Origin: Blastocystis sp. Blastoise
Taxonomy: Eukaryota; Protista; Bigyra: Opalinata
NCBI GenBank assembly: GCA_039096225.1
Contig: JBBPEB010000029.1
Span: forward strand, 248,001 to 312,000
Length of the DNA: 64,000 nucleotides
Direction of reading: 5' to 3'
The position numbers were made by a program, and so were the translations under genes. The first letter of the stretch is position 1. The number at the start of each line of letters is the position of its first letter. This document shows, one piece after another, positions 31,736-56,967 of the stretch. The notes beneath the pieces are model-generated. The model worked only from the letters and a program-made list of their open reading frames with translations, had not been told where the DNA came from and searched no databases.

Positions 31736-32647
31736 ATAATAATTCTTCCGTTCTTCGAACTGCAGAAGGGGGTATGCAAACCCCGCATAGAGTCTGCGCG
31801 ACGCGCGCAGCCATAAGCGGGGAAGACATCCCCCCTTTTTGTTCTCGACGGAAGAATTAATAACATTTCTGAAGTAAAATAACCATGGGAGTGTAGGGTA
31901 GTGTGTGTGTGTATTTATTTTTTCCCATGTTTATTTATTTTTAATTTATTTGTGTTCCGATTCCAACGTGAAACGTAAAGTGATCAAGGAGAAACTCATA
32001 GTAATCATAAAAGAAATAAAATACACAGTCCAACCCTCCCTTTACAGGGAATATTCATGGAAAATGGCTCCATCGTTGGTAAAGTGAGTAAAATAATCAC
32101 GGGAATACAGAAAGAAATACGAAAAGAAGCACAGAATGTGCTAAATAAACACACACCCCGACCCTCCCTTTATATAGAGAAAAGATGAAATGGATGGTTC
32201 TATCTAAAAAGAAATAATAAGAATAATCACGGGAATATATAAAAATAAAAATGTATGTATAGTGATCAATAAATAATATAAAAAGTCATGATAATCATAA
32301 AAAAATTTATATAAAAAGAGTAAAGTGATCAAGGTATGTATTTATAGTGGGTGAAAGAAAAGCTGGTGGTGGTGTGGTCTTGTAAAAAGATGTACCCACC
32401 ACCACGACTATAACGAGAGACTTTTGGAAACAAGGGTAACCGTTATGGAAATAGGATGCGTCATCGTGAATTGTCCAATCAAATTGCTTAAAATTGTAAA
32501 AATGAGGGATTTTGGAACACAAAAACACAATTATTATGGGGAAACTGGGGAAACTAAATTGTGTTCCAGTGGTTTTAGGTGGCGGCATGTATATCAATTT
32601 TCTAGAATATTCTAGAACATTCTCGAAACTTCTAGAACATTCGAGAA
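31736..32647 (+). repeat. Left terminal inverted repeat (912 bp)
   Basis: Reverse complement of 56056-56967 with about ten differences seen by eye (substitutions plus two 1-nt indels). Confidence 0.95.
32600..32647. promoter_or_regulatory. Heat-shock-element-like array (10 alternating nTTCn/nGAAn units)
   Basis: TTCtaGAAtaTTCtaGAAcaTTCtcGAAacTTCtaGAAcaTTCgaGAA at the inner TIR edge, upstream of ORF 32694. Confidence 0.65.
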
Positions 32648-32693
32648 TAATAAATTGTATTATTCGTTTTTTCTATTTTTTATACTATATATT

Positions 32694-32861
32694 ATGGATT
32701 CTCCAAAGCAATTTGCTCCAGATTATAAAGAAGGTACTTGGAAACCTTATGGAAATTTTGAAGTTGATGAATTAAGTGATAGTGATTCTGATGTGGATAC
32801 TATTCAAACTGAAAGTGAAGATGATTATGAAGATTATATAAAAAATTTTATTGATTTTTAA
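32694..32861 (+). CDS. Small acidic viral protein (55 aa), unknown function
   Basis: ATG at 32694 after the HSE array; followed by a TTGTTTAGTT 3' motif at 32889. Confidence 0.55.
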   Translation: MDSPKQFAPDYKEGTWKPYGNFEVDELSDSDSDVDTIQTESEDDYEDYIKNFIDF

Positions 32862-32935
32862 ATTAACGTTTATAAATAACAAAGCAAATTGTTTAGTTTT
32901 TAAAAATAATAATAAATAAAACAAATTAAAATTAA

Positions 32936-34426
32936 CTAATGTTTTCTACGTTTATTTCTTAATTTTTTATTTTTTGAAATACGTCTTTTTCTACGTAATC
33001 CATTACCTTCTTCGAGATCATAAAATACCTCACCATCATCTTCATCAAATGATTGAAATTCATCGTCTTCTTTTTTATTTCTTTTATTTTTATTTTCAAG
33101 AGTGACATTTTCTACTGGATTAGGAATCGGGGCTACAGGTGTAATATTTGGAGTGAATTTATTCGTGATTGCTTGAGACATTGGAACAGTATCAGGTAAA
33201 GGAACAGTAGGATCATTCATAAGAGGAATTAAATTTGGAGGATTTGAATCTTCTATAGTAATATTATGAATATTTTCTAGAGTTAGAGTATCAGGGGTAG
33301 ATGAAGGAGTTGATATAACATTATTATTTGTTTCTGTTGGATTTTCTGTTTGTGGTATTTCTTCTTCTGGATTTCTACCATACCACCAATCAGAAAAACT
33401 ATTAAATACGTTCTTTGTACCACTAACAATAGAGTTTGCAACTTTTTTAACACCATTAACAATTGGTGTTCCTACATTTGTTGCAGTATTAACAACTTTA
33501 TTAACAAATGTAGGGTTTTCTGCATAGGGAATATAATTTTTATGAAATGTTGTTGCTTGATTATCTAAAGATACCTTTTTGTTAAGTCTTTGTTCTTTAG
33601 TATCATTGCCTGACATATGAGCAAATCTAAAATAGTTATCAGCTAATATTTTATTTTTTTTCTTAGCTTCATTATCATCAGTTAATTTCCAATTATCATA
33701 TAAATTATTTCTATCACTTACAAGTTTTCCTTTAATATCATTGAATCCTTCTTGTGGATCAACATTAATATCTCTCCACCAATTCTTGAGATCTTTGAAT
33801 TTATTTGCACCATAATCAACAGCATTACTTATTCCATGAGTGATGTTATTAATACCTCCAGTTAATTTATCAGACACATTGTATACATCACTTACAGTGT
33901 GATAAATATTAGAAAATAAATTACCACCTCTAGAATATAAATAACCATCACGATCTCTTCTAGTAAAATCAATAGCACTATCAATTGTACGAGGATTTAA
34001 TAATCTAGAATATTTAGCATAATCAGACATATGATTTTGTTTCATATAAGGTAAGACATAATCATGAGCATAAATGAGTTTTCTTGTGAAATTCTTCGGA
34101 ATTCTACCATCAGGTAATAGCCCAGATCCTTCATCTATTGGTTCACTTTCTTCTGATTCTTCTAATGAACTTTGTATAATATCTTGTCTGGTTTCTGACA
34201 GATATGAATAGAATGGATTTGACGTTGCTCTATTAACCATATTACTTTCTATTCGTTTAACAGCAGCTAAAGAATTAGGAGCAATAGAATAATTAATTGG
34301 ATGACGTTCTTCTCCATCAGGAATAGATCCTGGAACAATATAATTTCGATATTCATGACCAGTAGCACGATGATTTACGCCTACTAATCCTTTATTCGAA
34401 ACATTTAAACGAGCACTTTGTATCAT
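32936..34426 (-). CDS. Putative virion core/membrane-active precursor protein with basic C-terminal tail
   Basis: 496 aa; GxG/RGG candidate cleavage sites (EGSGLL, SRGGNL, EGNGLRRKRR), amphipathic segments ending in WW, Arg/Lys-rich terminus. Confidence 0.55.
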   Translation of the reverse strand: MIQSARLNVSNKGLVGVNHRATGHEYRNYIVPGSIPDGEERHPINYSIAPNSLAAVKRIESNMVNRATSNPFYSYLSETRQDIIQSSLEESEESEPIDEGSGLLPDGRIPKNFTRKLIYAHDYVLPYMKQNHMSDYAKYSRLLNPRTIDSAIDFTRRDRDGYLYSRGGNLFSNIYHTVSDVYNVSDKLTGGINNITHGISNAVDYGANKFKDLKNWWRDINVDPQEGFNDIKGKLVSDRNNLYDNWKLTDDNEAKKKNKILADNYFRFAHMSGNDTKEQRLNKKVSLDNQATTFHKNYIPYAENPTFVNKVVNTATNVGTPIVNGVKKVANSIVSGTKNVFNSFSDWWYGRNPEEEIPQTENPTETNNNVISTPSSTPDTLTLENIHNITIEDSNPPNLIPLMNDPTVPLPDTVPMSQAITNKFTPNITPVAPIPNPVENVTLENKNKRNKKEDDEFQSFDEDDGEVFYDLEEGNGLRRKRRISKNKKLRNKRRKH

Positions 34427-34509
34427 TTTATAAAATAATTATGAATTTTAAAACAAAACAAAAAAAAAGAAATTATTTATATTATATAGTTAGTATATTA
34501 ATAGTATCA

Positions 34510-35301
34510 TTAATTATTATGAGTATTTTTTAAATAATCGTCAATATTCATTGATTTATCATTAGCTTCAACAAATAATGTTTTATTTTTGTAGAATATA
34601 TTATTATTTCCAAAAACATCACTATTGGTGCATTCAATAGGTCCATCAGTATACCATTTGAATTTATACTTTCCATAAGTGGCGTTATAATATGTTTTTT
34701 CGTCGGTATCTTGTTGTAAATTCATATCGAATTCAAATTTCTTTGGAGTATTATCATCTTCTTTATCTGGTTTCTTTTCAGTTTCAGGTTTAGTTTCAGG
34801 CTCTTTAGATGGTTTCTTTTCGGGTTCAGGTTTAGGTTCTGGTTTTGGTTGTTCTTCAGTGAAATTAGAATTCATGGATTCTGGTTGTGGTTTCACTGTA
34901 TAGTCTTCATTAGGATTTCTTACAGTATGAATAAGTTTTTCATATTGATAGTTATTAGGATTACTAGCATCATACCATATCTTACTTGTAGTAGGAATAC
35001 CATAATTCGTTTGCCATTGAGATAACATGGATGTATATCTATTTGTATCACCATTAGCTTTAGCTGAATTCATAGTAGCTATAAACATATCTTCAGGTGA
35101 TTGACCATGATTTCTTAATGCTTGAACTGCCATTGAGCTATACATAGATCCTTGTGCATTAGGATCATGTGCTAATGGTTGTACAGGTTGTTCATCTTGA
35201 CAAATATATGAATTGGGTAACCATGGATCCCAAGATTGTTTTTTCTGATTTCTTGATAAAATATCATAGAGAGTTACACTATCTCCTAAATTACTTTGCA
35301 T
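34510..35301 (-). CDS. Hypothetical viral protein with a Pro/Glu/Lys-rich linker
   Basis: 263-aa intact ORF with PKPEPKPEPEKKP repeats; no family recognised. Confidence 0.6.
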   Translation of the reverse strand: MQSNLGDSVTLYDILSRNQKKQSWDPWLPNSYICQDEQPVQPLAHDPNAQGSMYSSMAVQALRNHGQSPEDMFIATMNSAKANGDTNRYTSMLSQWQTNYGIPTTSKIWYDASNPNNYQYEKLIHTVRNPNEDYTVKPQPESMNSNFTEEQPKPEPKPEPEKKPSKEPETKPETEKKPDKEDDNTPKKFEFDMNLQQDTDEKTYYNATYGKYKFKWYTDGPIECTNSDVFGNNNIFYKNKTLFVEANDKSMNIDDYLKNTHNN

Positions 35302-35377
35302 TATTTATTGTATTAATTTAAAAATAATTATATAACAAAACAAATAATTAATTATGAAATAATAAAAGTTAAAATAA

Positions 35378-36415
35378 TTAATTTAAATGGAATTTTTTTA
35401 AGAAGAATTGAACAAGATTAATAATTAAATTAGTAGTAGTATCAAAGGATGTAGAGTTGACAAGAGCACCACCGCAACGTTCAGCATTCTCTTTTGTAAC
35501 ACCACTTCCACTAGGATTTTTAAAATAGTTATCAGCAGTTTCTTTACGTTTCTTATCATCATCAGTAGTAATCATATTATAAGCGAAATCAATAGGGATA
35601 CCAAGAGAAGGATAATAGTATTTTAATGCATTCACTACAATAGGAACAATCGTTTTAATAGTTTTAATAGCAGTATTCGCAATAATAGAATGCTTTTGTT
35701 TTGGATCCATAGGATATTCTTTATCGATAACGACATTAACAATATCACGTACAGACACATGCTCATCATTTTTAGGTAATCGTTCTTTTATATCTTGTAA
35801 TTTCTTTCTATTAGACTTTATATTATTAGAACGAATAGCCTTCTTAGCAATAATTCTTATTTGAGGAGTTACGAATTTACTTGTTTTCTTTTCTTTTTCT
35901 CGGTGACTCCCATGTTCTTTACGATGTTTCTGATGCCTTCTATGTATACCTTGACCAAATATATCATCATAATTTTCATCTTCAAGATTTGCATTATTAT
36001 AATCTTTATCATCATCAGCCATCATTTTTCTTGTTATTCTCTTTGGTTGATAAGTAGCATCATCATTATATAATTCATCATCTCTATTAGCATCTTCAAT
36101 ATGTTCTTCAAATTGTCTTTTCTTGTCTTCTTTTGCTTTTTCTTGACGTTTATTTTCTTTTCTTTTCTGATAATAATTATATCCAGCAATAGCTCCTAAT
36201 GTACCTAAGGCAGGAATAGCATAAGAAACACCATTTTTAACACTATTCCACATAGCATCTTTAGCTTGTTGAGCAACAAGTTCTTCAAAACCAGTTCCTC
36301 CATATCTTACATAACGTTTATGATAAAGATCACGTCTATTTGATTTTGGTGGTGATCCTCCAAATAATCGTGGATCACAATTTTGTTTTAAATATCTTTT
36401 TGTAATTGAACTCAT
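35378..36415 (-). CDS. Putative basic core precursor protein with a hydrophobic segment
   Basis: 345 aa; LFGGS, RYGGTG, FGQGIHRRH, SGSGV and RCGGAL motifs; hydrophobic AIPALGTLGAIAGY stretch. Confidence 0.55.
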   Translation of the reverse strand: MSSITKRYLKQNCDPRLFGGSPPKSNRRDLYHKRYVRYGGTGFEELVAQQAKDAMWNSVKNGVSYAIPALGTLGAIAGYNYYQKRKENKRQEKAKEDKKRQFEEHIEDANRDDELYNDDATYQPKRITRKMMADDDKDYNNANLEDENYDDIFGQGIHRRHQKHRKEHGSHREKEKKTSKFVTPQIRIIAKKAIRSNNIKSNRKKLQDIKERLPKNDEHVSVRDIVNVVIDKEYPMDPKQKHSIIANTAIKTIKTIVPIVVNALKYYYPSLGIPIDFAYNMITTDDDKKRKETADNYFKNPSGSGVTKENAERCGGALVNSTSFDTTTNLIINLVQFFLKKFHLN

Positions 36416-36470
36416 AACAAAACAATAAAATAATTATGGTTTATTTAACAAATTAAAATATAAAAAAAAA

Positions 36471-37508
36471 TTAATGAAAAGATGGATAACCAGAATAATG
36501 TTTTTTATTTAAATAAGGATTGAAAATGCGTCGTTGACTATCTTGTATGATTTGATCTTGTATGATTTGTAAGATGGATTCTTTAGGTTTATCTTTTTCA
36601 TCTCGTTCAATACCTTTCAATGAGACTTCTTCTTCAATAGGTAAAAACTTCTTCATTTTCTTTTCATATGTAGATACATGTTCATTAGGACGTTTAATAC
36701 CACTACCTGATACTTCACCTTGTTCTTCTCGTTTCTCTTTTTCACTATCTTCTTCTGTCCATTTCCTTTTCTTTACCATCTTATATACATTCTGTTTACT
36801 ACCACAATCAGGATTAGTCCATATTGTTAAATCATCACTACCTTGTTTTAACATAAAGAATTGATGTGGATCATTCATTAATTCTTCATCTGTAAGAATT
36901 TCATTTAGATTTGATGGCATAATCTTTAATTTATCTGGTAAGAATCCAGGATCACGTTTTAAGATTTGACTATTAATAAAGAAATGAGATACTTGACTTA
37001 ATATAGATTGATTGGTAACATCTGTATGACTTTGAAGACATATAATAGCATTCTGTTTATAATGACGACCTTTAGATAATATAGATACAATCAATTGTTT
37101 GGTTTGTCTAGATAATGGATAGATATCATCCAATACAATAAAATTATGTTCTGGTAATTTATATGTATTGACTAATTCATCAACAGTCTTAATCTTTTTA
37201 AATTTATCATCTACAGAATCATACCATTTATAATCAATTCCAGCATGTTCACAAATATCTTGAAAGGATGTATAACATTCATTCTTATTGGATGCATCAG
37301 GACAAATTACTGTGACTTGTTTATATTTATTTTTAAGATCCATAGAACATAAGAGGTTCACAGTTAAGAAAGATTTTCCTGAGAATGTTCTTGCAATAAT
37401 CAATATGAATTTTGATTCATATGTTTTATGATGGGATTTTCCATATTTAAATTCTAAGACTCCACATCCTTTACGTGTTTCTTTTAATGGATTTATTTTA
37501 TTCACCAT
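36471..37508 (-). CDS. A32/FtsK-HerA family genome-packaging ATPase
   Basis: Walker A ILIIARTFSGKS, Walker B FIVLDD, A32-type KGRHYKQNAIICLQ. Confidence 0.9.
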   Translation of the reverse strand: MVNKINPLKETRKGCGVLEFKYGKSHHKTYESKFILIIARTFSGKSFLTVNLLCSMDLKNKYKQVTVICPDASNKNECYTSFQDICEHAGIDYKWYDSVDDKFKKIKTVDELVNTYKLPEHNFIVLDDIYPLSRQTKQLIVSILSKGRHYKQNAIICLQSHTDVTNQSILSQVSHFFINSQILKRDPGFLPDKLKIMPSNLNEILTDEELMNDPHQFFMLKQGSDDLTIWTNPDCGSKQNVYKMVKKRKWTEEDSEKEKREEQGEVSGSGIKRPNEHVSTYEKKMKKFLPIEEEVSLKGIERDEKDKPKESILQIIQDQIIQDSQRRIFNPYLNKKHYSGYPSFH

Positions 37509-37577
37509 TTTTATATGATTTTAATCAACAAAACAAAAAATAATTAATGATAAGTTAAAGATAAATAAATGATTTTA

Positions 37578-38249
37578 TTAAGATGCAGTAAAGTATATAT
37601 AAAGATTTGTATTCGATAAATCAATTGGATTATTTAATTGATCATATACTTCCCATTGGATATCTGTATATTTACCATCAATACATGGAATAGATAAATC
37701 ACTTAAAGCAAATGTATTATCAAATCCTTGTTTAGCATATAAAGGAATAGAAATCAAATCATTATCTTTATTAATAATATCACAATACACACGTAACATA
37801 TAGATCTTATACCATGAAATATTTTTGGAAATATAATCATCATTATAGGTAATACATGATTCTCTTCTAAAATATTCGTCAGAAAATCCTAAATAATTAA
37901 AGAAAGTATAATTATTAAGACTTTTTCTGAATTCACTATACGTACCAAATACTTTCATATCTTTATCATAAAAAAATGCACTCGTTTTTCCAGATTCATA
38001 TATAGTCATAGTTTTACCTAATTCAATTAATTCTTCTAAGAATTCTTCCAGAGTATAATTACCAGCTGGAAATGTATGTACTGTTGCATTATTTTCAGTT
38101 ATTCTGAAAGATGGAATATTAATGATATCACTTGTATTCACTAATGTATTGATATGAGTAATATTTTTACCTACTAAATCCAAAGTATAATTGAATTGTT
38201 CATGACAGATTTGACTTGTAATTTTACTTAGATGAGATATTGATGTCAT
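37578..38249 (-). CDS. Minor capsid (penton, single jelly-roll) protein
   Basis: Pattern FPAGNYTLEEF..YLGFS..LRVYCDII..LISIPL..IQWEVYDQLNNPIDL, typical of Polinton/PLV minor capsid proteins; lies between the ATPase and MCP. Confidence 0.7.
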   Translation of the reverse strand: MTSISHLSKITSQICHEQFNYTLDLVGKNITHINTLVNTSDIINIPSFRITENNATVHTFPAGNYTLEEFLEELIELGKTMTIYESGKTSAFFYDKDMKVFGTYSEFRKSLNNYTFFNYLGFSDEYFRRESCITYNDDYISKNISWYKIYMLRVYCDIINKDNDLISIPLYAKQGFDNTFALSDLSIPCIDGKYTDIQWEVYDQLNNPIDLSNTNLYIYFTAS

Positions 38250-38345
38250 TTTTATTAAATGAATTAATTATGAAATTATAAACAAAACAATATTTTTAAG
38301 ATTAATATAAAGTTGATACAAATAAGAAAATATTATATAATTAAA

Positions 38346-39569
38346 TTAATTGGTTGCACCATCTCTAACAAATTTAACAAATATAAAATGAGCATATAAA
38401 GTATAAGTACCACTAGTAATATTTCCACCATTATATTCAGTTAATAAGGAGATATTAACTTCACAACCACTACGAGTATTGACATCAACAACACTTGAAA
38501 TAGGGAATATATAAATAGGTTGTTCATACCACTTTTCACCGTTTAAAGGAGATTGAGGATGACTATTACATCTCCAAGTATTATAAAGCATAGCATTAGG
38601 AATAATTTGTGATGGATTAGTTGTTTTATATGTAGTAGGGAAGTCCGTCTTAGGTAAGATATTTTGACCACCAATTTGGAATTGACACATCTTCAATAAT
38701 TCAGTCTTAATAGGAATCATACTCTTCTCTTGAGTTGTAAAATATAGCATACAGTAATCAGGTACGAAAACAACACTTCTATTGGATAAGAATTGTTGTG
38801 GAGTTGGTTTACCTGCTGTTGAGAATGTTTCTGTATAAACAGGTGTAGTAAATGCAGATATTTGACAATTATTAGGAATACATTTAATTAAAGCACGTGG
38901 ATCATTACCAAAATTAATATCATAAATTTGTTGAAGATGAATATAAACACGATCAAAAGTTAATGCAGTGATTTTAGTCGTACCTGTAAATAGATTCTTT
39001 AAATAATTTGTAACGAATTGCATCTTCAAAGATTTTACTTTAATAGCACAATCAAATGTACCAAGACCAGTAATAAGAGATAAAGGAATAATAACTTGAG
39101 CTTTAGTAGAACTTTGCATTCCAGCAATACTACTTAATGTTGTATTATATAAGCATTCTGTCATACTATACATAGATTTATCAATTTCATCTTTACTTAA
39201 TTCTTTAATAGTAACAAATTTTCTTGCTTTACTGGATTCAATAGAAGATTCAGAATAATTAATAAGAATATCTTGACCCGTAGGAGATACAAACGTAAGA
39301 TCTGTAGTAATTTTATCAATAATACTATAGATATTAGAATGTTGTACAACAGAACTAGTTGTAGCTGCATTTGTTGTAATATTGAAATTCAGTTCTAAGA
39401 ATGAATTACTGAAATCAATAAAAGGACTATCGACTGAATTATATAAGAATTCAAATGGATAAGGTTGATTTAATAAATCTTGACTTGTAGAAACTAGAAT
39501 AGGAATTTGTACAGGTTTAATAGTTTGATTTGCCTTTGAAGGTAAGAATTGTCTTGGGAATCCTTCCAT
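38346..39569 (-). CDS. Major capsid protein 1 (double jelly-roll)
   Basis: 407 aa, beta-rich. N-terminal FEFLYNSVDSPFIDFSNSFLELNFNIT..NIYSIID resembles Polinton/PLV MCP starts; second-roll VPDYCMLYF..PIYIFPI. Confidence 0.7.
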   Translation of the reverse strand: MEGFPRQFLPSKANQTIKPVQIPILVSTSQDLLNQPYPFEFLYNSVDSPFIDFSNSFLELNFNITTNAATTSSVVQHSNIYSIIDKITTDLTFVSPTGQDILINYSESSIESSKARKFVTIKELSKDEIDKSMYSMTECLYNTTLSSIAGMQSSTKAQVIIPLSLITGLGTFDCAIKVKSLKMQFVTNYLKNLFTGTTKITALTFDRVYIHLQQIYDINFGNDPRALIKCIPNNCQISAFTTPVYTETFSTAGKPTPQQFLSNRSVVFVPDYCMLYFTTQEKSMIPIKTELLKMCQFQIGGQNILPKTDFPTTYKTTNPSQIIPNAMLYNTWRCNSHPQSPLNGEKWYEQPIYIFPISSVVDVNTRSGCEVNISLLTEYNGGNITSGTYTLYAHFIFVKFVRDGATN

Positions 39570-39739
39570 GTTAATAATTATTGTTTATGTATTTTTTAAA
39601 TAAAAAATAAAATAATAATGATATTTTATAATTATAAAATTATTTGAAATTCATAACAAAACAAATGATTGGAATATAGAATAGAATAGAATTAATTAAA
39701 CAAGTTAACGTTAAGAATAGTAAGTAAGAAATATTAAAT

Positions 39740-41212
39740 TTAAATATCACGTACACTACGTACAGCAATCATATGTAATGTATAAGGATGCTTCTCATTT
39801 AGTTCAGTATTAATATGTTTATAAATACCAGCATGAGATGCTACACTATAAGAAGCACCAGTATCCGGTGTCCATATTTTAGTAGTTTCATTATATGTAC
39901 ATGTATATCCATCAGGAACAGTGGATGAATTAGCATGACCATATTCAATATCATGAACATCTAGATTACAATCAAAATTCATTTCTATACCACTATCTGA
40001 TTGGATATTCATTAATGCTTTAGTTGGAATAATATAAATAGGATGTTTAATCCATTCATCATATTTAAGAATAGTTTCAGGATTTGAATTATCAGCCCAT
40101 AAACAATATAAATTTTTATTAGGACAAGATAAACTAGCAGTTTCTTCATTATTGAAGACATGACCTTTAGTAGTAAGATTATGATAATACATTTGAGTAG
40201 GGAATTCAGTTTGAGGGAACATTTGAACATCACCAATCAAACAACTTTGATATTTAGGCCATACAGATGGACTAGCTACATTACTAATAGTTGTTGAACT
40301 ATAACCATTTGTAAACCAGTATAATATATATTCAGGTATAAATGGTAAAGCTCTATTGATATTGAAATGATCACTAGTTATTCTTGTATTTTGATAATCG
40401 ACTTGAATACATGTAGGTATAGTTTTATATAATTCATTCGTTTGAAATTGAATATCTTTATATGTCATTAAATTCATAGTAGCTGATTCCAATTCAAATG
40501 TCTTAAACCATTTTTCATCAGTTAGATGTAACCATTGTGTTGATAGATCTTTACCACCATTCTTGAAATAAATACTCATATTATTATCAATTAAGGATTC
40601 AATAGTACTAGTTCTAAATAACATATTGAAATGTTTAGTTAATATTAATGAATCTCCATCAACACCTAAACCACTAATAAGATATAAAGGAATAGCAATA
40701 TGAATAGATTCATTTGGATGTGCACGTATATAACGAATAGAATTCAATTCATAAGTATCTGCAGATAAATCTTCACCATACATAGATTTTTCTAAATCAT
40801 TCTTACTGATATCTTTTAATAATATCATTTTACGACCACGTGAAGCATGTGTACAATTTTCTTCATATTTCAAAGCACGATCAGATCCATCAGGTAATGT
40901 ATAAACCATTTCAACATCAGTGGAATCAATAATAGAATAAATATTAGCTTTCTGAACTAATTGATCCAAGAAATATTGACATAATTGATCATAAGTGAAA
41001 CTAACAGAAGTACCTGTTTCATCTAAATAAACAGAAACTGGTCCTTTTTTATCTGTAACAGTTGCTTTGACAGTAAGATCCAAATAGGATTGATTGAAAT
41101 TGATATAAGTATTATCCACATTAGTCCAATGATATTGAAAGATATAAGGACTTGATAGAATATCAGTATCACTTTGAATAGGAATATTATCTTTAATTCT
41201 TAAGATTCTCAT
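39740..41212 (-). CDS. Major capsid protein 2 (paralogue of MCP1 with insertions)
   Basis: Shares YINFNQSYLDL, NIYSIID, KSMY, IPLYLISGLG, IPEYILYWF, IGDVQMFPQTEFPT and PIYIIP blocks with 38346-39569. Confidence 0.7.
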   Translation of the reverse strand: MRILRIKDNIPIQSDTDILSSPYIFQYHWTNVDNTYINFNQSYLDLTVKATVTDKKGPVSVYLDETGTSVSFTYDQLCQYFLDQLVQKANIYSIIDSTDVEMVYTLPDGSDRALKYEENCTHASRGRKMILLKDISKNDLEKSMYGEDLSADTYELNSIRYIRAHPNESIHIAIPLYLISGLGVDGDSLILTKHFNMLFRTSTIESLIDNNMSIYFKNGGKDLSTQWLHLTDEKWFKTFELESATMNLMTYKDIQFQTNELYKTIPTCIQVDYQNTRITSDHFNINRALPFIPEYILYWFTNGYSSTTISNVASPSVWPKYQSCLIGDVQMFPQTEFPTQMYYHNLTTKGHVFNNEETASLSCPNKNLYCLWADNSNPETILKYDEWIKHPIYIIPTKALMNIQSDSGIEMNFDCNLDVHDIEYGHANSSTVPDGYTCTYNETTKIWTPDTGASYSVASHAGIYKHINTELNEKHPYTLHMIAVRSVRDI

Positions 41213-41307
41213 ATTTCTTTTAATTTTAAATAAAATATTAATAAATAAATAAAATTAAATAATTTTTATAAATTAATATAAATTATAATTTAATAAAATT
41301 AGAAAAT

Positions 41308-43791: not shown

Positions 43792-43860
43792 ATATTTTAA
43801 GACATTTCATTTAAATTAAAAAATGTTTTGTTATATTATTCATTTAAAAATTATTAAAAA

Positions 43861-44283: not shown

Positions 44284-44350
44284 TTCTATGAAATGTTATA
44301 AAATATTAATAATAAATTTGTTTTGTTTATAAATAATTTAATTTTTAATA

Positions 44351-46147: not shown

Positions 46148-46191
46148 TTTTAAAACAAAACAACTTTTTATAATAAAAAATAAATATATAT

Positions 46192-49193: not shown

Positions 49194-49279
49194 GATTATT
49201 TGACTTATAAATAATGAAAATAAATATGGTATAAAATTCAAAACAAATAATATATTAAAGATTCTAGAAGTCAGTTTTA

Positions 49280-49399
49280 GAAGCTTCTAGAACATTCTAG
49301 AACATTCAGGAACATTCTATAATAGTAAATATTACTTTATATTTTTAAATGTTCTAGAACCTTCGAGAACCTTCTAGAACCTTCTAGAACCTTCTAGAA
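49280..49399. promoter_or_regulatory. Two heat-shock-element-like arrays upstream of the primase-helicase
   Basis: GAAgcTTCtaGAAcaTTCtaGAAcaTTCagGAAcaTTC (49280-49317) and TTCtaGAAccTTCgaGAAccTTCtaGAAccTTCtaGAAccTTCtaGAA (49352-49399). Confidence 0.65.
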
Positions 49400-49508
49400 C
49401 ATCATTTTTATACTTTAGTGTTTTAAATATATATACAATAAACAAAACAATTTTCAATGATTTTTACAAGTTTATAAGTAAAAATAGAAAAATAAACAAG
49501 AAAAATAA

Positions 49509-50132
49509 TTAAATTTCAATTGGTTCTTGACTATTAATATATGTACATGAATGAGGCCATCCATTTTTATCATATAAAATACCATCCCAGAAATACATTT
49601 GTTTTGAAGGATCTCTTTTAATCTTGTTAATACTCTTAGCATGAACAACTTCATAAGTATAAACTTTACCTTTTTCATCATAAAGGAATCCATCTTCCAT
49701 ATGGAATTTCATAATATCAAAATCATCATCTTTAGAATTCGAATGTTCTTTAGAATCTTCAGAACATAAAATAGTAGTTCTATCACTTTCTAAAAGATCT
49801 TCAGTATTGATAATATCTTGAATATCTTGTTCTTCATTAAGTTGTTGAGTATAAATATCAGCAGCGAATTCTTCATAATCTTCAAGACCTTTAATAACCG
49901 CGTTTATACGTTTTAAAGCTGATCTATAGTTTTCGACTTCGAAAGAAGCAAGACGTTCTTTAGATTTTGCAATACCCAATAGATTCTTTTCTCTATTCAA
50001 TTGAGACTGATGTAAATCAATATCACGAAGAACATTCTTATGAACTTCAACAGCCTTCTTAGAATTCTTAAGAAGTTCCATACGAACAGTTTGAAGACAT
50101 TTACGGGAATCAGCAGAAAGATTAAATTGCAT
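49509..50132 (-). CDS. Hypothetical coiled-coil viral protein
   Basis: ATG at 50132, heptad-rich N-terminal half, duplicated DG(F/I)LYD(E/K)(K/N)G motif; HSE-like element at 50244-50261 upstream. Confidence 0.6.
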   Translation of the reverse strand: MQFNLSADSRKCLQTVRMELLKNSKKAVEVHKNVLRDIDLHQSQLNREKNLLGIAKSKERLASFEVENYRSALKRINAVIKGLEDYEEFAADIYTQQLNEEQDIQDIINTEDLLESDRTTILCSEDSKEHSNSKDDDFDIMKFHMEDGFLYDEKGKVYTYEVVHAKSINKIKRDPSKQMYFWDGILYDKNGWPHSCTYINSQEPIEI

Positions 50133-50530
50133 TATAATCGCGAATATCGTTACAGAGAGAAAATTTGTATTTATCAAAATGAAATAAATAATACATTTAA
50201 ATGGAATATTAAATATTCTAGGAGACAGTGTAGAATCTCTATGGAATGTTCTAGAAGGTTCATTTGATTGGCTAATTTTGTCGACTTAGCATTTTTTATT
50301 TGTGTTTCAATGACGAGTATAGTTGGCATCTGTAATCTGATTGGATAAAAAAATTAGTAAAACACAATTAGACGATGACGACGACTTGTCATACAAAATA
50401 AGCTATTCTATTGGTTTATTTTCCAGCTGGAAGCAATAGGCTTTTGTTAGCAACTGAAATGAAGAACTGTACACTAAAAATAGTATATTTAATATATTGT
50501 ATAAAAATACTTTTGAAGGTTTAAATAATC

Positions 50531-51058
50531 ATGGAAATTCCTGATAGTCTTTCTGCCAGTTTATCCCCTTTCGGTCAAGCCATGATATCCCCCTTGTTGA
50601 ATCCATTTGAAAATAGTGTTTCTGAAAATCCTATGGCTTTACCCAATGATAATGATTTCTGTTTTAATTCGCGTGACGAAATCATATTTGAAGATCCACC
50701 TCAAGAAATTCATCCAATCAATGATGTTTATGTATCTAAAAATCCAGATAGATATCATTCGGTTAACAATCAACCAATACAATTTCAAGATCAAGTAAAT
50801 ACAAATCCTAATAAGCAAGCATTATTATTTACAAATGAGGAGTTAACAAATATATCCAGTCAATTCGAATCTTTATTTCAAACTATTGAAACAGCTGATA
50901 ATATATTAAATAGTATTTATTGTACTGTTGATCATTTAAAAACAAAGATTGAAAGTCAGAAACAAGATTTGAAACAGATTCATGATGATTCTAAAGAAAT
51001 TGTTTCATTATTATCCGAATATTCTATTCCTTCTATGTCTGAAATATTTGATCATTAA
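50531..51058 (+). CDS. Hypothetical viral protein (acidic N-terminus, C-terminal coiled coil)
   Basis: 175-aa ORF followed by TTGTTTTGTT at 51081. Confidence 0.6.
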   Translation: MEIPDSLSASLSPFGQAMISPLLNPFENSVSENPMALPNDNDFCFNSRDEIIFEDPPQEIHPINDVYVSKNPDRYHSVNNQPIQFQDQVNTNPNKQALLFTNEELTNISSQFESLFQTIETADNILNSIYCTVDHLKTKIESQKQDLKQIHDDSKEIVSLLSEYSIPSMSEIFDH

Positions 51059-51144
51059 TTTATTTATTTAATTAATTATTTTGTTTTGTTTATTTTTTAA
51101 ATTAATTACACAAAGTTTAAATGGAGAATAGAATAATTTCAAAT

Positions 51145-51253
51145 AGAATTCTTGAATGGTCTAATGGATCTATTAAAGAAATATGTAACCACAGTATCAT
51201 GGTTCGATTCCGTTAAAATGTTTCCATTAGATTATTCAAGTGTTCTTTTTTTT
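51145..51253 (+). ncRNA. Putative RNA polymerase III small RNA (VA/vault-like architecture)
   Basis: A box TGGTCTAATGG 51157-51167, B box GGTTCGATTCC 51201-51211, long terminal stem with G:U pairs, T8 terminator 51246-51253. Confidence 0.65.
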
Positions 51254-51299
51254 CTAGAACCTTCTCGAACATTCTAGAACCTTCTCGAACCTTCTGGAA
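51252..51299. promoter_or_regulatory. Heat-shock-element-like array upstream of the SSB-like gene
   Basis: TTCtaGAAccTTCtcGAAcaTTCtaGAAccTTCtcGAAccTTCtgGAA (10 units). Confidence 0.65.
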
Positions 51300-51376
51300 A
51301 ATTGATTCATTTGAAAAGAATATCTAAATATATTAGTATTAAAATACTTATATTTTTACTAAATACTTAACTAAAA

Positions 51377-51970
51377 ATGTCTACAACTGAATTTAAAAAA
51401 CCTACTATTCTTGATACTTCTAACTTTAATTTACAATGGGATGACACCAAAGAAAATGCTGTTCTTTTAAATAATAATCATCGTGTATGTATTTCTACTG
51501 ATGCTACACCATGTTTATTTGGTTATATTGTTACACGTGATAAATGGACTTTATTAACAATTGAAGATGATAATCAATTATTCTTAACTGCTTATAAAGA
51601 ACTTTATCGTAAATTATGTGAATTATGTCCTGATGGTGATATTGTTAATTTTGTACGTATGGATAATGGTAAATATAAGATTACAATTAAAGTACCTATT
51701 AATGCATCGAAGAATGTTACTATTGATATTACTGATAAAAGAGATAAGAAGATTAATATCGGTAAAGATCCTAAGTTAACTTACGAAGAAATACGTGAAA
51801 AGTATATTCCACCAAATACGTTATGTAAAGTATTATTTACAATACATGGTATTCATCGTTATAATAACAAGTATTATATTGGTTTATATGCTCGTTCTAT
51901 TAAAGTCATCGATAAATCTACGAAGAATACTAATAGTAATGATACTATTATTGATTTAACTAATTTATAA
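51377..51970 (+). CDS. Probable OB-fold ssDNA-binding protein (T7 gp2.5 / NCLDV DUF2738-like)
   Basis: TPCLFGY, KYKITIKVP and IPPNTLCKVLFTIHGIHRYNNKYYIGLYARSIKV resemble the viral SSB pattern; recognised by eye only. Confidence 0.5.
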   Translation: MSTTEFKKPTILDTSNFNLQWDDTKENAVLLNNNHRVCISTDATPCLFGYIVTRDKWTLLTIEDDNQLFLTAYKELYRKLCELCPDGDIVNFVRMDNGKYKITIKVPINASKNVTIDITDKRDKKINIGKDPKLTYEEIREKYIPPNTLCKVLFTIHGIHRYNNKYYIGLYARSIKVIDKSTKNTNSNDTIIDLTNL

Positions 51971-52044
51971 ATTTTTAATGTTAAATTTATTTTTTATTAA
52001 TATATTTGTTTTGTTTATAAATAATTTTATAATTGAAATAAAAA

Positions 52045-53673
52045 ATGCAAAGTTGTATATTAGGAATGCCAAGTCCTGGTACTTTTGGTATGAATTTAAT
52101 TTCAACTGGAAAAGAATATAGGCGATATAATACACAGCCATTACATAAAATGGATCAATATAATCCAATATTTCATGAAATAGGTCCAAATTCATCTATG
52201 CCTGTAACTACTTTAGAAAGTAAAGAAATACATGATGGTAAAGAAGATGATTATGTAGATCGTTCTAAAACATTTGGTAAAGATGCTGTTCCACAAGGAA
52301 ATGGTGCATTAATTCGTGCTAGAGCAGCAGGTAAAGGTGTAATGAAAGCAGCTGGTCCAGAAGAAGATAAAATAGATGGTGAAGATCGTCAATATAAAGT
52401 ATTAAATCCATGTAAACCAAGACGTAAATCTGGTAGAGGTATTATTCCAAATAAATCAGAAATCAATAAATTAGAAAATAATCAAGGTTCTGGTATTGGT
52501 GATGCAATTAAAAATAAAGTAAAAGATATGTATCAACGAAATGTATTAGATATAAGAGATGCTATTGTAGATAAAAAAGCTAATAGAAAAGCTCGTGATG
52601 CATTAGCTATTTTAGCTCAATATGTTGGTGATGGTCATCATGATCTTGATGATGAATTCAAAAGATTCTATGATCATAAAATAAAACGTGGTGGAAAGAT
52701 TCCTATATCTGTTGCTTCAGCAATTATGAATGCAATTAAAAATAAGAAAATGATTAAGAATCCAAAATTAAGAAGAATGTTAAGACCTTCAATTATACCA
52801 AAATATATAGATTTAGATTCAGCTCAAAGTGGTGATGGTATATTAAGAGTTAAAAGAGGTGGTGGATTCTGGGATGGAGTAATGAATTATGCACCAGCTC
52901 TTTTAGGTGTAGTTGATAAAGGTATGGATTCTTTTGCTAAAGGTAGAAAAGCTTATTATGATACACATTTGGCACAACAATCAAGTGAATTAAATGATAT
53001 GGAATTTGAAATGGAAAAATTAAAACGTCAACAAGCATTAAATGAAATGAAAAAACAAATAGGTTCAGGAAATACTATAAATAAAATGTTTGAAGGATAT
53101 TATGATGTAGCTGATGAAATGCAAGATGCTCTTAACGAAGATGATAGACTACATCCACAACCCGTTGTTCAACCTCCACCACCTCCACAACAACAAGTTG
53201 TTAGACCTCCTCAACCTCAACCTCCTCAACCTTATAAACCTATGTCTCGTGATGAACAAAGTTATCCTTATAAGATTTATGGTTTCCCTCAAAATGATAA
53301 GGAGAAAGTCGATAGAAAATGGAAAGAAGATGAAAGGGATAAACGAATAGCTGCAAGAAGAGCTAAACGTAGAGGATATGGTGGTCGAGTTAAATTAAGT
53401 AAAGAAGAATTCTTAGAACGAATGAGAAGAGGAAAAGAAGCTAAAAAGAAAAGAGGTGGTGAATTGCCTCCATTGGTAACAGCTTATACAGATTTTGTAA
53501 TACCTGCACAAGTAGAACAAAGGAAACGTAAAGTAGCTAAAAATGATTTAAAACAATTACAAATTATAAAACAGAAAATGGATAATAATGAAATATTAGA
53601 TAGAGGTGAACAAATGTTTTGGAAAGAAAAGAAGTATATGTTATCAAAAAACTCAGGGGAGGGGATCTGGTAA
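52045..53673 (+). CDS. Core polyprotein precursor with many GxG/RGG maturation sites
   Basis: 542 aa, basic and Pro-rich segments; QGNGAL, AGKGVM, SGRGII, QGSGIG, KRGGKI, SGDGIL, KRGGGFW, IGSGNT, GYGGRV, KRGGEL. Confidence 0.6.
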   Translation: MQSCILGMPSPGTFGMNLISTGKEYRRYNTQPLHKMDQYNPIFHEIGPNSSMPVTTLESKEIHDGKEDDYVDRSKTFGKDAVPQGNGALIRARAAGKGVMKAAGPEEDKIDGEDRQYKVLNPCKPRRKSGRGIIPNKSEINKLENNQGSGIGDAIKNKVKDMYQRNVLDIRDAIVDKKANRKARDALAILAQYVGDGHHDLDDEFKRFYDHKIKRGGKIPISVASAIMNAIKNKKMIKNPKLRRMLRPSIIPKYIDLDSAQSGDGILRVKRGGGFWDGVMNYAPALLGVVDKGMDSFAKGRKAYYDTHLAQQSSELNDMEFEMEKLKRQQALNEMKKQIGSGNTINKMFEGYYDVADEMQDALNEDDRLHPQPVVQPPPPPQQQVVRPPQPQPPQPYKPMSRDEQSYPYKIYGFPQNDKEKVDRKWKEDERDKRIAARRAKRRGYGGRVKLSKEEFLERMRRGKEAKKKRGGELPPLVTAYTDFVIPAQVEQRKRKVAKNDLKQLQIIKQKMDNNEILDRGEQMFWKEKKYMLSKNSGEGIW

Positions 53674-54239
53674 AGAGTAAAGATGAAAAACTTATTCAAA
53701 ATTCAATGAATTGCGATAATCCTATTATATCTGATAAAACTCGTCATGTTACTCCTAGATCCCCTGATAATTTTAAACAAACTCTATTTCAATATTGTAA
53801 TATACCCAATTCTTTAATATCTCAATTATATAATTATGCTTATTTAAATAAACCTACCTCTTCTGTTGCTTGTGATCGTGCTGAAAATGTTATGAAACAA
53901 TTAAATAAAACGAATTCTCAATCTTATAATTATTATAATAGTTATGATGATTTTGAACAAAATATAGATCAAGATCAAACTAAATTTAATATGATCTTTC
54001 ATGAAAGTCCTAGTGATCCTTATAATGGTCATTTTGAAGCTGTTATTTATAATGGTAATAAAAATATAGAACACTATTCATCATTAGGAAATAAACCTAC
54101 TTTTTCAAAATCATTTATTCAAAATCATAATATTCAATATAATCCTATTCAACACCAAAAAACTACAAGTAATGCAAATGGTTGCTTTTATTATTCTTTA
54201 CTTTATTTACTTTCTAATGGAAATCTTATGCCTTGTTAA
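53619..54239 (+). CDS. Adenain/Ulp1-like cysteine maturation protease (-1 frame relative to the core polyprotein; first ATG 53706)
   Basis: GHFEAV (His), EHYSSLG (variant of the usual FDS(F/L)G), oxyanion QHQ and GCFYYSLLYL (Cys). Confidence 0.7.
   Translation: MERKEVYVIKKLRGGDLVKSKDEKLIQNSMNCDNPIISDKTRHVTPRSPDNFKQTLFQYCNIPNSLISQLYNYAYLNKPTSSVACDRAENVMKQLNKTNSQSYNYYNSYDDFEQNIDQDQTKFNMIFHESPSDPYNGHFEAVIYNGNKNIEHYSSLGNKPTFSKSFIQNHNIQYNPIQHQKTTSNANGCFYYSLLYLLSNGNLMPC
53646..53765 (+). promoter_or_regulatory. Candidate -1 programmed ribosomal frameshift signal
   Basis: In-frame slippery heptamer A AAA AAC (53646-53652), 7-nt spacer, stem AGGGGATCTGG/CTAGATCCCCT (53660-53670/53755-53765) extended by GAGTAA/TTACTC. 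Confidence 0.65.
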
Positions 54240-54325
54240 AACCTTCTAGAATATTCTAGAATCTCTAATTTATTATATTAATATTTTGTATAATTAATTT
54301 GTTTTGTTTATTATTTAATACTATA

Positions 54326-54481
54326 ATGACAAAGAAACGATTTGGCAATTACTACTTAGATCGTAGTGCAGAAACTTTAGAGAATGTAAATGAAATACTG
54401 TCAGTTATTGAAATTGTTCTTATTATTATATATATTTTACTTTACTTCTATATGTCCAAGAAACGTTCTAGAACATTCTAG
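54326..54481 (+). CDS. Small single-pass membrane protein (51 aa)
   Basis: ILSVIEIVLIIIYILLYFYM hydrophobic run followed by basic residues; HSE-like element at 54244-54261 upstream, 3' motif at 54552. Confidence 0.45.
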   Translation: MTKKRFGNYYLDRSAETLENVNEILSVIEIVLIIIYILLYFYMSKKRSRTF

Positions 54482-54583
54482 AACATTCATTTTGAACTGG
54501 CTCTATTTGTAGAATCTTTAATTTATTATATTAGTGTTTTATATAATTAATTTGTTTTGTTTAATCATTGGTTAATTTTAATA

Positions 54584-54958
54584 ATGAACAAGAAATATCT
54601 TAGTTATTCTTATTTTTGTCGTGTGATGAAGAATCTAAAAGAAGAAGGAATTAAATCCAAAAAGAATGAAATAGCGAATCTTTTAGAACAATTTTTAAAT
54701 AACAATAACAACAAAAATCTTAGTGATTTACAACTAAGTTATTGTAGAAACATGTTACTTTATATAGATGATCCTGTGATTCATCAACGTCTTGAAATGC
54801 TATTGGATAAACAATATATGAAGAATGAGAATCAATATCAAGAGGATAAGAATCTTATTCAACCCAATAATATGTTTATGCCTACTATGAAAAGTAATCA
54901 ACAACAAAATCAATACCAAAATAATAATAATAATCTATCTTTCTTACCTTTTAATTAA
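54584..54958 (+). CDS. Hypothetical viral protein (Asn/Gln-rich C-terminus)
   Basis: 124-aa ORF from ATG 54584; HSE-like element at 54466-54488 upstream, TTGTTTAGTT at 54982. Confidence 0.55.
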   Translation: MNKKYLSYSYFCRVMKNLKEEGIKSKKNEIANLLEQFLNNNNNKNLSDLQLSYCRNMLLYIDDPVIHQRLEMLLDKQYMKNENQYQEDKNLIQPNNMFMPTMKSNQQQNQYQNNNNNLSFLPFN

Positions 54959-55031
54959 TTTTTATATCCTTTTATTACTAGTTGTTTAGTTATATTCAAA
55001 ATTAAAACAAAACAAACATAAAAACATAAAA

Positions 55032-55967
55032 TTATTCAATTAATTTTTTAAATAAATTATTATTTTCTAAAGATACATAAGAATTAATATGTGTATAATC
55101 ATTATGACATAAAGCAGAAGCAGAATTTTCTATATCTTGGAATGTATTGGTTGTAGTTGTAGCATATAATTTTCTTAATGCATTAATGGTTAATTTTGGA
55201 TGGATTTGTTTTAAATGCTTATTCACAAACCAATCAAATGCTTTAGTAGTAAATCCAGTTCGTACAGAAGATTCAAATATAAATTTACGATTTGGATTTC
55301 TTTTTAAGAGTAATTCTAGATCTTCAATCAATTCTTTTGGTGCATCTAATTGAATTGTAGAGTATTTACCAGCAGTTTTATAATCATTCAATAGAATAGA
55401 ACCAGTGTGTTTCTCTTTATCATAAACAATATAATTCTTATGAATAGCTGGATCAATAGTATCTTCTGGAGTTAGAATGAATAATTGAGCATAATCAGCA
55501 CGAGCAGGAGGAAGATAGGAGTAAAAATCTAATATTAATCGTAATGGATTATAATTTTCTAATTTATCGTGATATTCATGTAAATATGGAGTCGTAATAC
55601 CATCTTTAATAAGATCTTGAATCAAAGTGCGTTTCTTATTATCCAGATATTTTTCATACATAGAATTGATAATCACATAAAATTCACACCATTTATTTAA
55701 AATACCTTCTTTATTTAATGAAGAAACATTACGTATAATAAATAATATCAATTCACATAACGATTTCATTGGACTAATTTTGATTTTACGTTCATTTACC
55801 ATATAATCCATGAATGAATAAGGATTCTTTAAGAATTCTGAGAACTTTTTAAATGGTAATGGGAAAATATATAAATTGAAATAATTGGTTAAACGTTTTT
55901 TCCAAATATCAGAATAATTTGAATTCTGTATAACCAAAAGATACTTGTCATAATTTGTATTTTTCAT
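55032..55967 (-). CDS. Tyrosine recombinase 2 (integrase- or protelomerase-like)
   Basis: PPARADY (R), LNDYKTAGKY (K), NALRKLYA (R..Y), LCHNDYTHINSY (H..Y at +9); adjacent to the right TIR. Confidence 0.8.
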   Translation of the reverse strand: MKNTNYDKYLLVIQNSNYSDIWKKRLTNYFNLYIFPLPFKKFSEFLKNPYSFMDYMVNERKIKISPMKSLCELILFIIRNVSSLNKEGILNKWCEFYVIINSMYEKYLDNKKRTLIQDLIKDGITTPYLHEYHDKLENYNPLRLILDFYSYLPPARADYAQLFILTPEDTIDPAIHKNYIVYDKEKHTGSILLNDYKTAGKYSTIQLDAPKELIEDLELLLKRNPNRKFIFESSVRTGFTTKAFDWFVNKHLKQIHPKLTINALRKLYATTTTNTFQDIENSASALCHNDYTHINSYVSLENNNLFKKLIE

Positions 55968-56055
55968 TGATTTTCTCAAGTAGAATCTTTAAAACTTCTA
56001 TTTTCAAAAGAATAATACATAAGAAAATCAAAATAAAATATCTAAGATTCTCATG

Positions 56056-56967
56056 TTCTCGAATGTTCTAGAAGTTTCGAGAATGTTCTAGAATATTCTA
56101 GAAAATTGATATACATCCCGCCACCTAAAACCACTGGAACACAATTAGTTTCCCCAGTTTCCCCAATATAATTGTGTTTTTGTGTTCCGAAATCCCTCAT
56201 TTTTACAATTTTAAGCAATTTGATTGGACAATTCACGATGACGCATCCTATTTCCATAACGGTCACCCTTGTTTCCAAAAGTCTCTCGTTATAGTCGTGG
56301 TGGTGGGTACATCTTTTTACAAGACCACACCACCACCAGCTTTTCTTTCACCCACTATAAATACATACCTTGATCACTTTACTCTTTTTTATATAAATTT
56401 TTTATGATTATCATGACTTTTTATATTATTTATTGATCACTATACATACATTTTTATTTTTATATATTCCCGTGATTATTTTTATTATTTCTTTTTAGAT
56501 AGAACCATCCATTTCATCTTTTCTCTATATAAAGGGAGGGTCGGGGTGTGTGTTTATTTAGCACATTCTGTGCTTCTTTTCGTATTTCTTTCTGTATTCC
56601 CGTGATTATTTTACTCACTTTACCAACGATGGAGTCATTTTCCATGAATATTCCCTGTAAAGGGGAGGGTTGGACTGTGTATTTTATTTCTTTTATGATT
56701 ACTATGAGTTTCTCCTTGATCACTTTACGTTTCACGTTGGAATCGGAACACAAATAAATTAAAAATAAATAAACATGGGAAAAAATAAATACACACACAC
56801 ACTACCCTACACTCCCATGGTTATTTTACTTCAGAAATGTTATTAATTCTTCCGTCGAGAACAAAAAAGGGGGATGTCTTCCCCGCTTATGGCTGCGCGC
56901 GTCGCGCAGACTCTATGCGGGGTTTGCATACCCCCTTCTGCAGTTCGAAGAACGGAAGAATTATTAT
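56056..56967 (-). repeat. Right terminal inverted repeat (912 bp)
   Basis: Reverse complement of 31736-32647; its HSE-like array (56056-56103) lies upstream of tyrosine recombinase 2. Confidence 0.95.

Follow-up and report, generated by a model that had tools for sequence, protein, structure and literature searches.

INTRODUCTION

How Polintons and Polinton-like viruses (PLVs) become active is an open question; most have never been seen as particles, and the known triggers are giant-virus infections. For example, the reactivation of mavirus and of a Tetraselmis PLV is set off by a giant virus, and for mavirus it is stated to be independent of host stress (10.1101/2025.10.09.676808). Here, we examine a 64,000-nucleotide stretch of contig JBBPEB010000029.1 (positions 248,001 to 312,000; hereafter, the window) that harbors an integrated PLV. 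Seven promoters of this virus contain perfect arrays of alternating TTC and GAA units, and our analysis supports reading them as promoter elements of the type recognized by the heat shock factor (HSF) of eukaryotic hosts.

The closest described systems are PLVs of protists that combine a primase-helicase with a tyrosine recombinase (YR) (PMC10120064; 10.64898/2026.06.19.733378; Tetraselmis S2x, 10.1101/2025.10.09.676808). As far as the consulted sections of these reports go, they and our element are alike in a length of 15 to 30 kb, terminal inverted repeats (TIRs), and many copies per genome. They also share a double jelly-roll (DJR) capsid, a packaging ATPase, a protease-like gene, an archaeo-eukaryotic primase (AEP)-superfamily 3 (SF3) helicase, and a YR. 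Unlike them, the element described here has two capsid paralogues, two YRs, and host-type promoter arrays. The MELD viruses of Blastocystis (Starrett et al., PMC8502044) come from the same host genus, with divergent virion proteins. According to the consulted parts of that paper, they encode a protein-primed DNA polymerase (pPolB) and an adintovirus-type integrase, whereas our element has a primase-helicase and YRs. The word "heat" has 0 occurrences in that paper, and the consulted parts describe no promoter features.

RESULTS

Long heat-shock-type arrays are confined to the viral element

The initial annotation had reported eight perfect alternating TTC/GAA arrays, and all eight are present, to the base (Table 1). 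They represent seven distinct sites. Identity between the TIRs stops at the inner edge of a 10-unit array, which means that the 32600 and 56056 arrays amount to a single site, mirrored in the two repeats. The proposed match to the HSF-binding consensus is borne out: the sequences fit it exactly, with at least three contiguous inverted units everywhere and a bias toward AGAAn, the form optimal for HSF, position 1 of the unit being A in 40 of 51 units when the TIR is counted once. Our criterion for a unit follows published definitions of the heat shock element (HSE) (PMC9157408), which in Drosophila in vivo consists of three oppositely oriented AGAAN units (PMC2936546). It had also been claimed that spacer bases vary while TTC and GAA stay fixed. 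Variation is indeed seen, with 15 of 60 comparable spacer positions differing within arrays while the cores are unchanged, the cores being perfect by ascertainment since arrays were defined by intact cores. Yet the spacers are not free to the extent implied, as TTCxxGAA carries TA in 19 of 28 instances. Exactly 10 units occur in three distinct arrays. The array at 49352 is a near-perfect 10-bp tandem repeat, and a duplication probably gave rise to the two similar cassettes that hold those at 54244 and 54466.

Across the window, there are nine arrays of at least three units: eight belong to the element, and the ninth, of 3 units, is in host DNA (11286). With the threshold raised to at least four units, only the eight remain, all inside the element. 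Thirty third-order Markov simulations of the window produced a mean of 1.4 three-unit arrays and zero with four or more units. A search of the rest of the element for near-perfect 4-unit sites (11 of 12 core bases) returned none.

Arrays precede a subset of viral genes

We measured the distance from the array edge to the ATG for 20 open reading frames (ORFs) of the element. At all seven promoters, an array lies 46 to 111 bp before the ATG, i.e., in a promoter-proximal position. The genes concerned are the primase-helicase (two arrays), a gene resembling a single-stranded DNA-binding protein (SSB), YR2, and four unknowns of 55, 207, 51, and 124 amino acids (aa), in agreement with the annotated placement before the primase-helicase, SSB-like gene, YR2, and small ORFs. 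The nearest array to a divergent 175-aa ORF is 269 bp off. The remaining 12 of the 20 ORFs, including both capsids, the ATPase, and the protease, have no array within 745 bp, as had been proposed for the capsid, ATPase, core, and YR1 genes. Within the range of our checks, the gene labels stand: the DJR capsid is upheld by its fold, the primase-helicase and ATPase by family matches, both recombinases by motif, and the SSB by a weak look-alike. When genes are grouped by class, arrays precede three of four replication or recombination genes and none of 10 presumed virion genes (Fisher p = 0.011, a count made without the 140-aa ORF, the 175-aa ORF, and the four array genes that lack an assignment).

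Placement within the right arm is the best internal control for selectivity, as the arrays there skip a core-like gene and a protease gene that lie between array-bearing genes. Arrays are missing from the middles of coding regions and from all three gaps between convergent genes. The arrays at 54244 and 54466 lie between the stop codon of the upstream gene and that gene's putative 3' signal. The divergent promoter contains three ATTGG (CCAAT) boxes toward the 175-aa gene, and the capsid genes have short, AT-only upstream regions.

The same geometry has different forms in other genomes

To place the arrays in context, we scanned other sequence collections. In IMG/VR, a 6-unit inverted nGAAn pattern was found at 68 loci, many inside phage ORFs. 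Among 30 distinct strings of at least six units, only three (from a giant-virus contig and two viruses with circular, single-stranded DNA that encodes Rep [CRESS viruses]) had an A fraction at position 1 of at least 0.67; the other 27 ranged from 0 to 0.57. Four loci (L006, L014, L023, and L031) carry nGAAn 10-bp repeats (~1501) in phage genes, and in three of these four the gene contains Lin1244_N, which we take to be a phage replication-initiator domain. These repeats favor C or G at position 1 and have no AGAAn bias, and they are likely origin iterons that mimic HSE geometry.

A strict AGAAn-type 5-unit pattern was found at 12 loci in IMG/VR, and six of the loci are CRESS-like, an assignment based on Rep or capsid matches in Pfam for four, near identity to a confirmed one for another, and inspection by eye for the last. 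Combining both scans, about four CRESS lineages have an array 98 to 134 bp before a Rep or capsid-like gene. The arrays are of five to six units (L053:1484-1511, L068:998-1025, L088/L095:1501-1523, L091:315-342, and L092:1501-1523), and a TATA-like box stands between array and gene in L053, L068, L091, and L092. In L053 and L068, the array is far from an origin-like stem-loop and ahead of the TATA box. There are counter-cases, with the array at the end of Rep (L086), between convergent genes (L044), or in no promoter-like position (L085, L090, and L093). HSF may control these small single-stranded DNA viruses. Separately, in giant-virus contigs, an AGAAn array lies 46 bp before a C2H2 zinc-finger gene (L087/L094:1501-1523).

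The four IMG/VR loci with an 8-unit pattern are all unrelated to the element, and of the 12 JGI metagenome loci with a 10-unit pattern, none is related (tblastn) and inspection by eye showed no obvious hsp gene beside any of them. By itself, the pattern is no proof of anything; what favors HSF is its AGAAn form combined with its position at promoters and with the host context.

A low-GC Blastocystis is the likely host, and the genus carries HSF domains

The capsid and ATPase are 93% and 99% identical, respectively, to proteins annotated in Blastocystis sp. Blastoise. The capsid has 87 matches in all, the other 86 of which are at 48 to 63% identity and come nearly all from metagenome assemblies. 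Cluster listings for the capsid, recombinases, and 175- and 207-aa genes show some 20 near-identical, mostly full-length copies in the Blastoise annotation, indicating that the family was recently mobile. A low-GC clade of Blastocystis has been described from tortoises (PMC12129017), and the flank GC of ~20% fits it. From this and from the homology, the host is likely a low-GC Blastocystis. Whether the host encodes HSF had been raised as a check, and the outcome was positive: the HSF DNA-binding domain IPR000232 is counted two to three times in each of the eight Blastocystis isolates, and hence in all eight proteomes, of PMC12129017 (supplement file 10), a table that apparently counts matches rather than genes and that we read as at least one HSF-domain protein.

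A host repeat element with long TATTATA arrays occurs three times in the window, at 27326-28196 (-) and as similar copies at 22951-23603 and 30506-31406. The SSB-like gene of a sibling copy (P0088) changes at residue 118 into sequence that matches this element's end, which indicates that host mobile DNA inserted into a viral copy.

Anatomy of the element

The element is a PLV of the primase-helicase and YR type. It spans ~25.2 kb between its TIRs, within the 15- to 40-kb Polinton-like range, and its GC content of ~24 to 30% compares with ~17 to 25% across most of the left flank. Scanned ORFs of the element gave no match to pPolB or an RVE integrase, and it is therefore not a Polinton/Maverick sensu stricto; nor was an RNA polymerase or HSF-like domain recognized among them. 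No clear target-site duplication was found in the flanks. In the outer 120 bases of the TIR, none of 200 shuffles was as stable as the observed fold, and this terminal hairpin is a candidate origin or recombination site. The arrays lie ~740 bp or more inward of the hairpins. Each TIR ends with an inward-facing, promoter-like block made up of a cyclic AMP response element (CRE)-like site, a CCAAT box, and an array. Beyond the element, the flanks are rich in transposons, with DDE_Tnp_4, hAT-like, and MULE transposase genes along with long 20-bp minisatellites (17245-18414, 20406-22726, 58173-60727, and 61102-63031).

Evidence for the individual genes is mixed. A structural model of the 407-aa capsid (pLDDT 74, from a 62-sequence alignment) had its best PDB match in the Sputnik major capsid protein (E = 2.4e-12), and its best match in BFVD was a "MELD virus sp." protein (E = 6e-17; TM 0.66). 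The ATPase matches a packaging family without resolution of an A32 subtype. The 496-, 263-, and 345-aa ORFs are presumed to be core or virion proteins from their position and from GxG-type motifs in two of the three. Domain and PHROG scans gave no usable family match for the minor-capsid candidates of 223 and 827 aa. The primase-helicase is split into frames of 945 and 54 aa (46192-46400), and a 99% identical relative is one 1,000-aa protein. BLASTP produced no alignment of YR1 with YR2 (best E = 0.056), and the assignment of YR1 consequently rests on motif order. The two unrelated-looking recombinases, of which YR2 has an array and YR1 does not, may share out integration and excision or end resolution over late and early phases. 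The SSB-like protein had a language-model score of 0.95 to clusters of DUF5871 and of DUF2738, which is presumably an SSB family, at a recognition level below the tool's threshold and therefore weak; its single-sequence fold had a pLDDT of 35. No PDB match was found for the protease-like ORF and no usable Atlas match for the 207-aa protein. We considered the 175-aa protein as an HSBP1-like modulator of HSF and rejected the idea, because Pfam and the PDB gave no HSBP1 match, only a generic coiled coil.

Fifteen of the 20 viral stop codons are followed within 100 bases by the 9-mer TGTTTTGTT, and four more are followed by one-mismatch variants. These 15 copies, which span 32860-55040, are all of the exact occurrences in the element. 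The motif resembles TGTTTGTT, the polyadenylation element reported from human Blastocystis subtypes (PMC4159000), and is one base longer. It likely marks gene ends, and its positions place the primase and SSB arrays beyond the end of the preceding gene, in promoter space. A role as a late promoter was rejected given that the motif follows stop codons, has variants in convergent gaps, and is missing from the divergent capsid promoter. Copies also occur in host DNA at 17220 (-), 17095 (+), and 60968 (-), including one 25 bases past the stop codon of a flanking DDE transposase. The 542-aa gene has no such motif and is separated by 32 bases from the protease-like ORF (53673-53706), with which it may share a transcript. 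Section 7 of PMC12129017 reports no enrichment of TGTTTGTT in the tortoise clade. Possibly TGTTTTGTT is the variant used there, or the virus may have come from a lineage that uses the element.

Table 1 Features of the viral element, by position in the window
Feature	Position	Strand	Evidence or remarks
Polinton-like (MELD-type) endogenous virus	31733..56970	.	TIR pair, GC profile, DJR capsid
Left TIR, ~915 bp	31733..32648	+	Terminal hairpin; CRE-like site 32459; CCAAT box 32475
Branched GC-rich hairpin, outer end of TIR	31740..31859	.	z = -6.75; mirror at right end
Array, TIR copy, 10 units	32600..32647	.	46 bp before ATG of 55-aa ORF
55-aa acidic ORF	32694..32861	+	No assignment; absent from protein collection
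Three ORFs of 496, 263, and 345 aa	32936..36415	-	No array; presumed core/virion
Packaging-type P-loop ATPase	36471..37508	-	PHROG packaging family, E = 1.2e-10; no array
223-aa ORF, minor capsid candidate	37578..38249	-	No array
DJR major capsid, 407 aa	38346..39569	-	Fold; no array
Second capsid paralogue	39740..41212	-	27% identity to first, E = 2e-38; no array
827-aa ORF, presumed virion protein	41308..43791	+	No array
YR1, 598 aa, tyrosine recombinase-like	44351..46147	+	R/K/HxxR/H/Y motif order by eye; no array
AEP primase-SF3 helicase	46192..49193	-	PHROG DNA primase, E = 2e-9
Array, 8 units	49280..49317	.	86 bp before ATG of primase-helicase
Array, 10 units	49352..49399	.	158 bp before ATG of primase-helicase; past putative 3' signal of 207-aa gene
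207-aa ORF	49509..50132	-	No assignment; conserved in sibling copies
Array, 4 units	50244..50261	.	Divergent promoter; 111 bp before ATG of 207-aa ORF
175-aa ORF, acidic, coiled coil	50531..51058	+	No specific family
Array, 10 units	51252..51299	.	77 bp before ATG of SSB-like gene
SSB-like protein, 197 aa	51377..51970	+	Look-alike of nucleocytoplasmic large DNA virus (NCLDV) DUF5871/DUF2738 clusters
542-aa basic protein, presumed core	52045..53673	+	9 GxG-type motif matches; no array
177-aa cysteine protease-like ORF	53706..54239	+	H...Q...C order by eye; no array
Array, 4 units	54244..54261	.	64 bp before ATG of 51-aa ORF
51-aa ORF	54326..54481	+	Hydrophobic stretch; absent from protein collection
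Array, 5 units	54466..54488	.	95 bp before 124-aa ORF; overlaps end of 51-aa ORF
124-aa ORF	54584..54958	+	No assignment; array 95 bp upstream
YR2, 311-aa tyrosine recombinase	55032..55967	-	Phage_integrase, E = 0.08 (weak), and catalytic motif order
Right TIR	56055..56970	-	Inverted-repeat match
Array, TIR copy, 10 units	56056..56103	.	88 bp before ATG of YR2

DISCUSSION

Given their form and position, the arrays are probably bound by host HSF. Whether HSF also drives an early gene set, with stress induction reaching integrated copies, is in our judgment evenly balanced. HSF trimers bind arrays of this kind and activate polymerase II upon proteotoxic stress (PMC9157408). In our model, such stress would bring host HSF to the arrays and switch on an early set comprising the primase-helicase, the SSB-like protein, one recombinase, and four small unknowns. 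Three inverted AGAAn units bind one HSF trimer, so that arrays of 8 to 10 units would load about three trimers cooperatively. Transcription would be carried out by host polymerase II, as suggested by the lack of a recognized viral RNA polymerase and by the CCAAT boxes, CRE-like sites, and host-like 3' signal; each TIR would end as an inward-facing HSF promoter. Next, YR2 and the primase-helicase would work on the hairpin-forming ends, setting the genome free and copying it, and the capsid genes would be switched on later by another route. Raised levels of replication and recombination proteins would likely mobilize integrated copies. Taken further, though at less than even odds, the family would be a temperature- or stress-inducible provirus, in which HSF directly fires a seven-promoter early regulon in ~20 integrated copies with no helper giant virus. 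With the same reserve, we suggest that this may be one case of a wider strategy, also represented by the arrays before Rep in CRESS viruses.

Several points weigh against the model. If only the four firmly assigned virion genes are used, the class comparison gives a Fisher p of 0.14, and clustered neighboring genes are not independent, which makes the association merely suggestive. No function can be assigned to four of the seven genes with arrays, and one recombinase (YR1) has no array. The inverted nGAAn pattern also occurs inside phage genes, where no HSF exists, and the 12 JGI loci are mostly minisatellite-like, with two in bacterial-looking contigs. The split of the primase-helicase in this copy may be a real lesion or an assembly error. 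The binding specificity of Blastocystis HSF is assumed; we saw no hsp gene anywhere in the window. No related DNA loci were confirmed in IMG/VR (primase, capsid, and ATPase queries), JGI metagenomes, or GTDB, and our description of the arrays covers the one copy in the window. Finally, HSF binds HSEs poorly in inactive chromatin (PMC2936546), and a silenced provirus may therefore not respond.

That last point bears on the alternative that survives best, namely, that the arrays are real HSF sites acting as strong enhancers, either basal or triggered by infection, of genomes that are incoming or episomal, the integrated copies being silent rather than awakened by heat. The sequence evidence fits it just as it fits an inducible provirus. 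Furthermore, HSF requires active chromatin in order to bind (PMC2936546), HSF1 is activated in the course of infection by several viruses (PMC9157408), and the similar arrays before Rep in nonintegrating CRESS viruses mean that the design needs no provirus stage. However, the ~20 near-identical integrated copies were recently mobile, and a recombinase is among the array genes. We regard silent integrated copies as unlikely, though worth serious attention.

Alternatively, the arrays could be operators or iterons for a viral protein, such as an initiator, the winged-helix tail of the helicase, or an autorepressor (the 124- or 207-aa protein). Replication origins are commonly found inside initiator genes, and the inverted 10-bp nGAAn repeats inside phage genes, with Lin1244_N in three of the four tested, are a precedent for such a function; the four unexplained array genes could be regulators. 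Nevertheless, seven dispersed sites, each just before an ATG, fit promoters and lack the clustering of iterons at one origin, and the arrays are well inside the hairpin-forming ends. In addition, the phage-like arrays do not have the AGAAn bias, and no DNA-binding domain was recognized in the small viral ORFs. Overall, we consider binding by a viral protein improbable.

It is less probable still that another host factor has an HSE-like site or that Blastocystis HSF has been repurposed for oxygen, encystation, or the cell cycle. We found nothing in the literature on HSF function in Blastocystis, and InterPro match counts do not show a trimerizing, stress-responsive HSF. Yet the exact HSF geometry of 5-bp inverted units in AGAAn form speaks against this reading; STAT-type sites have a 3-base spacer. 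Last, if the arrays were neutral minisatellites of 10 bp that slippage and local duplication had spread, this would account for the near-perfect repeat at 49352 and the two duplicated-looking cassettes, and such minisatellites do exist elsewhere (the JGI loci), but spacers differ at 25% of positions while cores do not, arrays are missing from coding middles and convergent gaps, the distance to the ATG is fixed, and three arrays have exactly 10 units, all of which leaves this explanation scarcely credible.

If an HSF-inducible provirus is present, PLVs would have their first defined switch that responds to a host signal, and SOS prophage induction would have a eukaryotic counterpart. Blastocystis is culturable and a transfection method has been published (PMC6395660), which allows for a sharp and inexpensive test: the seven named genes should rise after heat, the capsid genes should follow later, and episomes should appear. 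A positive outcome would supply an inducible system from which a virus of this kind could be isolated. It might also account for the virus-like particles sighted long ago in Blastocystis (PMC12835684), and it would tie the activity of a virus in a common gut eukaryote to host body temperature.

Our search of the literature found nothing that links Polintons or PLVs to HSF; supplements outside that search may list the virus family itself. Among other mobile elements, HSE-bearing transposons are known, including ONSEN and Caenorhabditis Helitrons (PMC6927752), as well as long terminal repeat (LTR) elements of Macrostomum (PMC12801592). As portrayed in the portions of these studies that we consulted, they are likewise mobile elements with HSEs, which LTR elements carry in their terminal repeats, and they are or may be switched on by host HSF. 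They differ in having one promoter per element, while here, in a capsid-encoding DNA virus, each of seven genes that presumably form one temporal class has its own array upstream. Among viruses, host HSF likewise raises a replication or latency-exit function through Qp (EBNA1) of Epstein-Barr virus and the LTR of HIV-1 (PMC9157408, in the sections consulted). In those viruses, a single HSE is one of many inputs, whereas our element would have a multigene regulon of perfect 4- to 10-unit arrays. SOS prophage induction is comparable in that a host stress sensor activates the genes with which an integrated virus recombines and replicates, as would happen here. Unlike in SOS, the switch proposed here would be an activator at promoters rather than the cleavage of a repressor; no repressor was identified, and the inducibility of the element is a proposal. 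Distinctive of the element, whose host can be cultured, are long, perfect arrays at seven promoters that as a set follow one class of genes.

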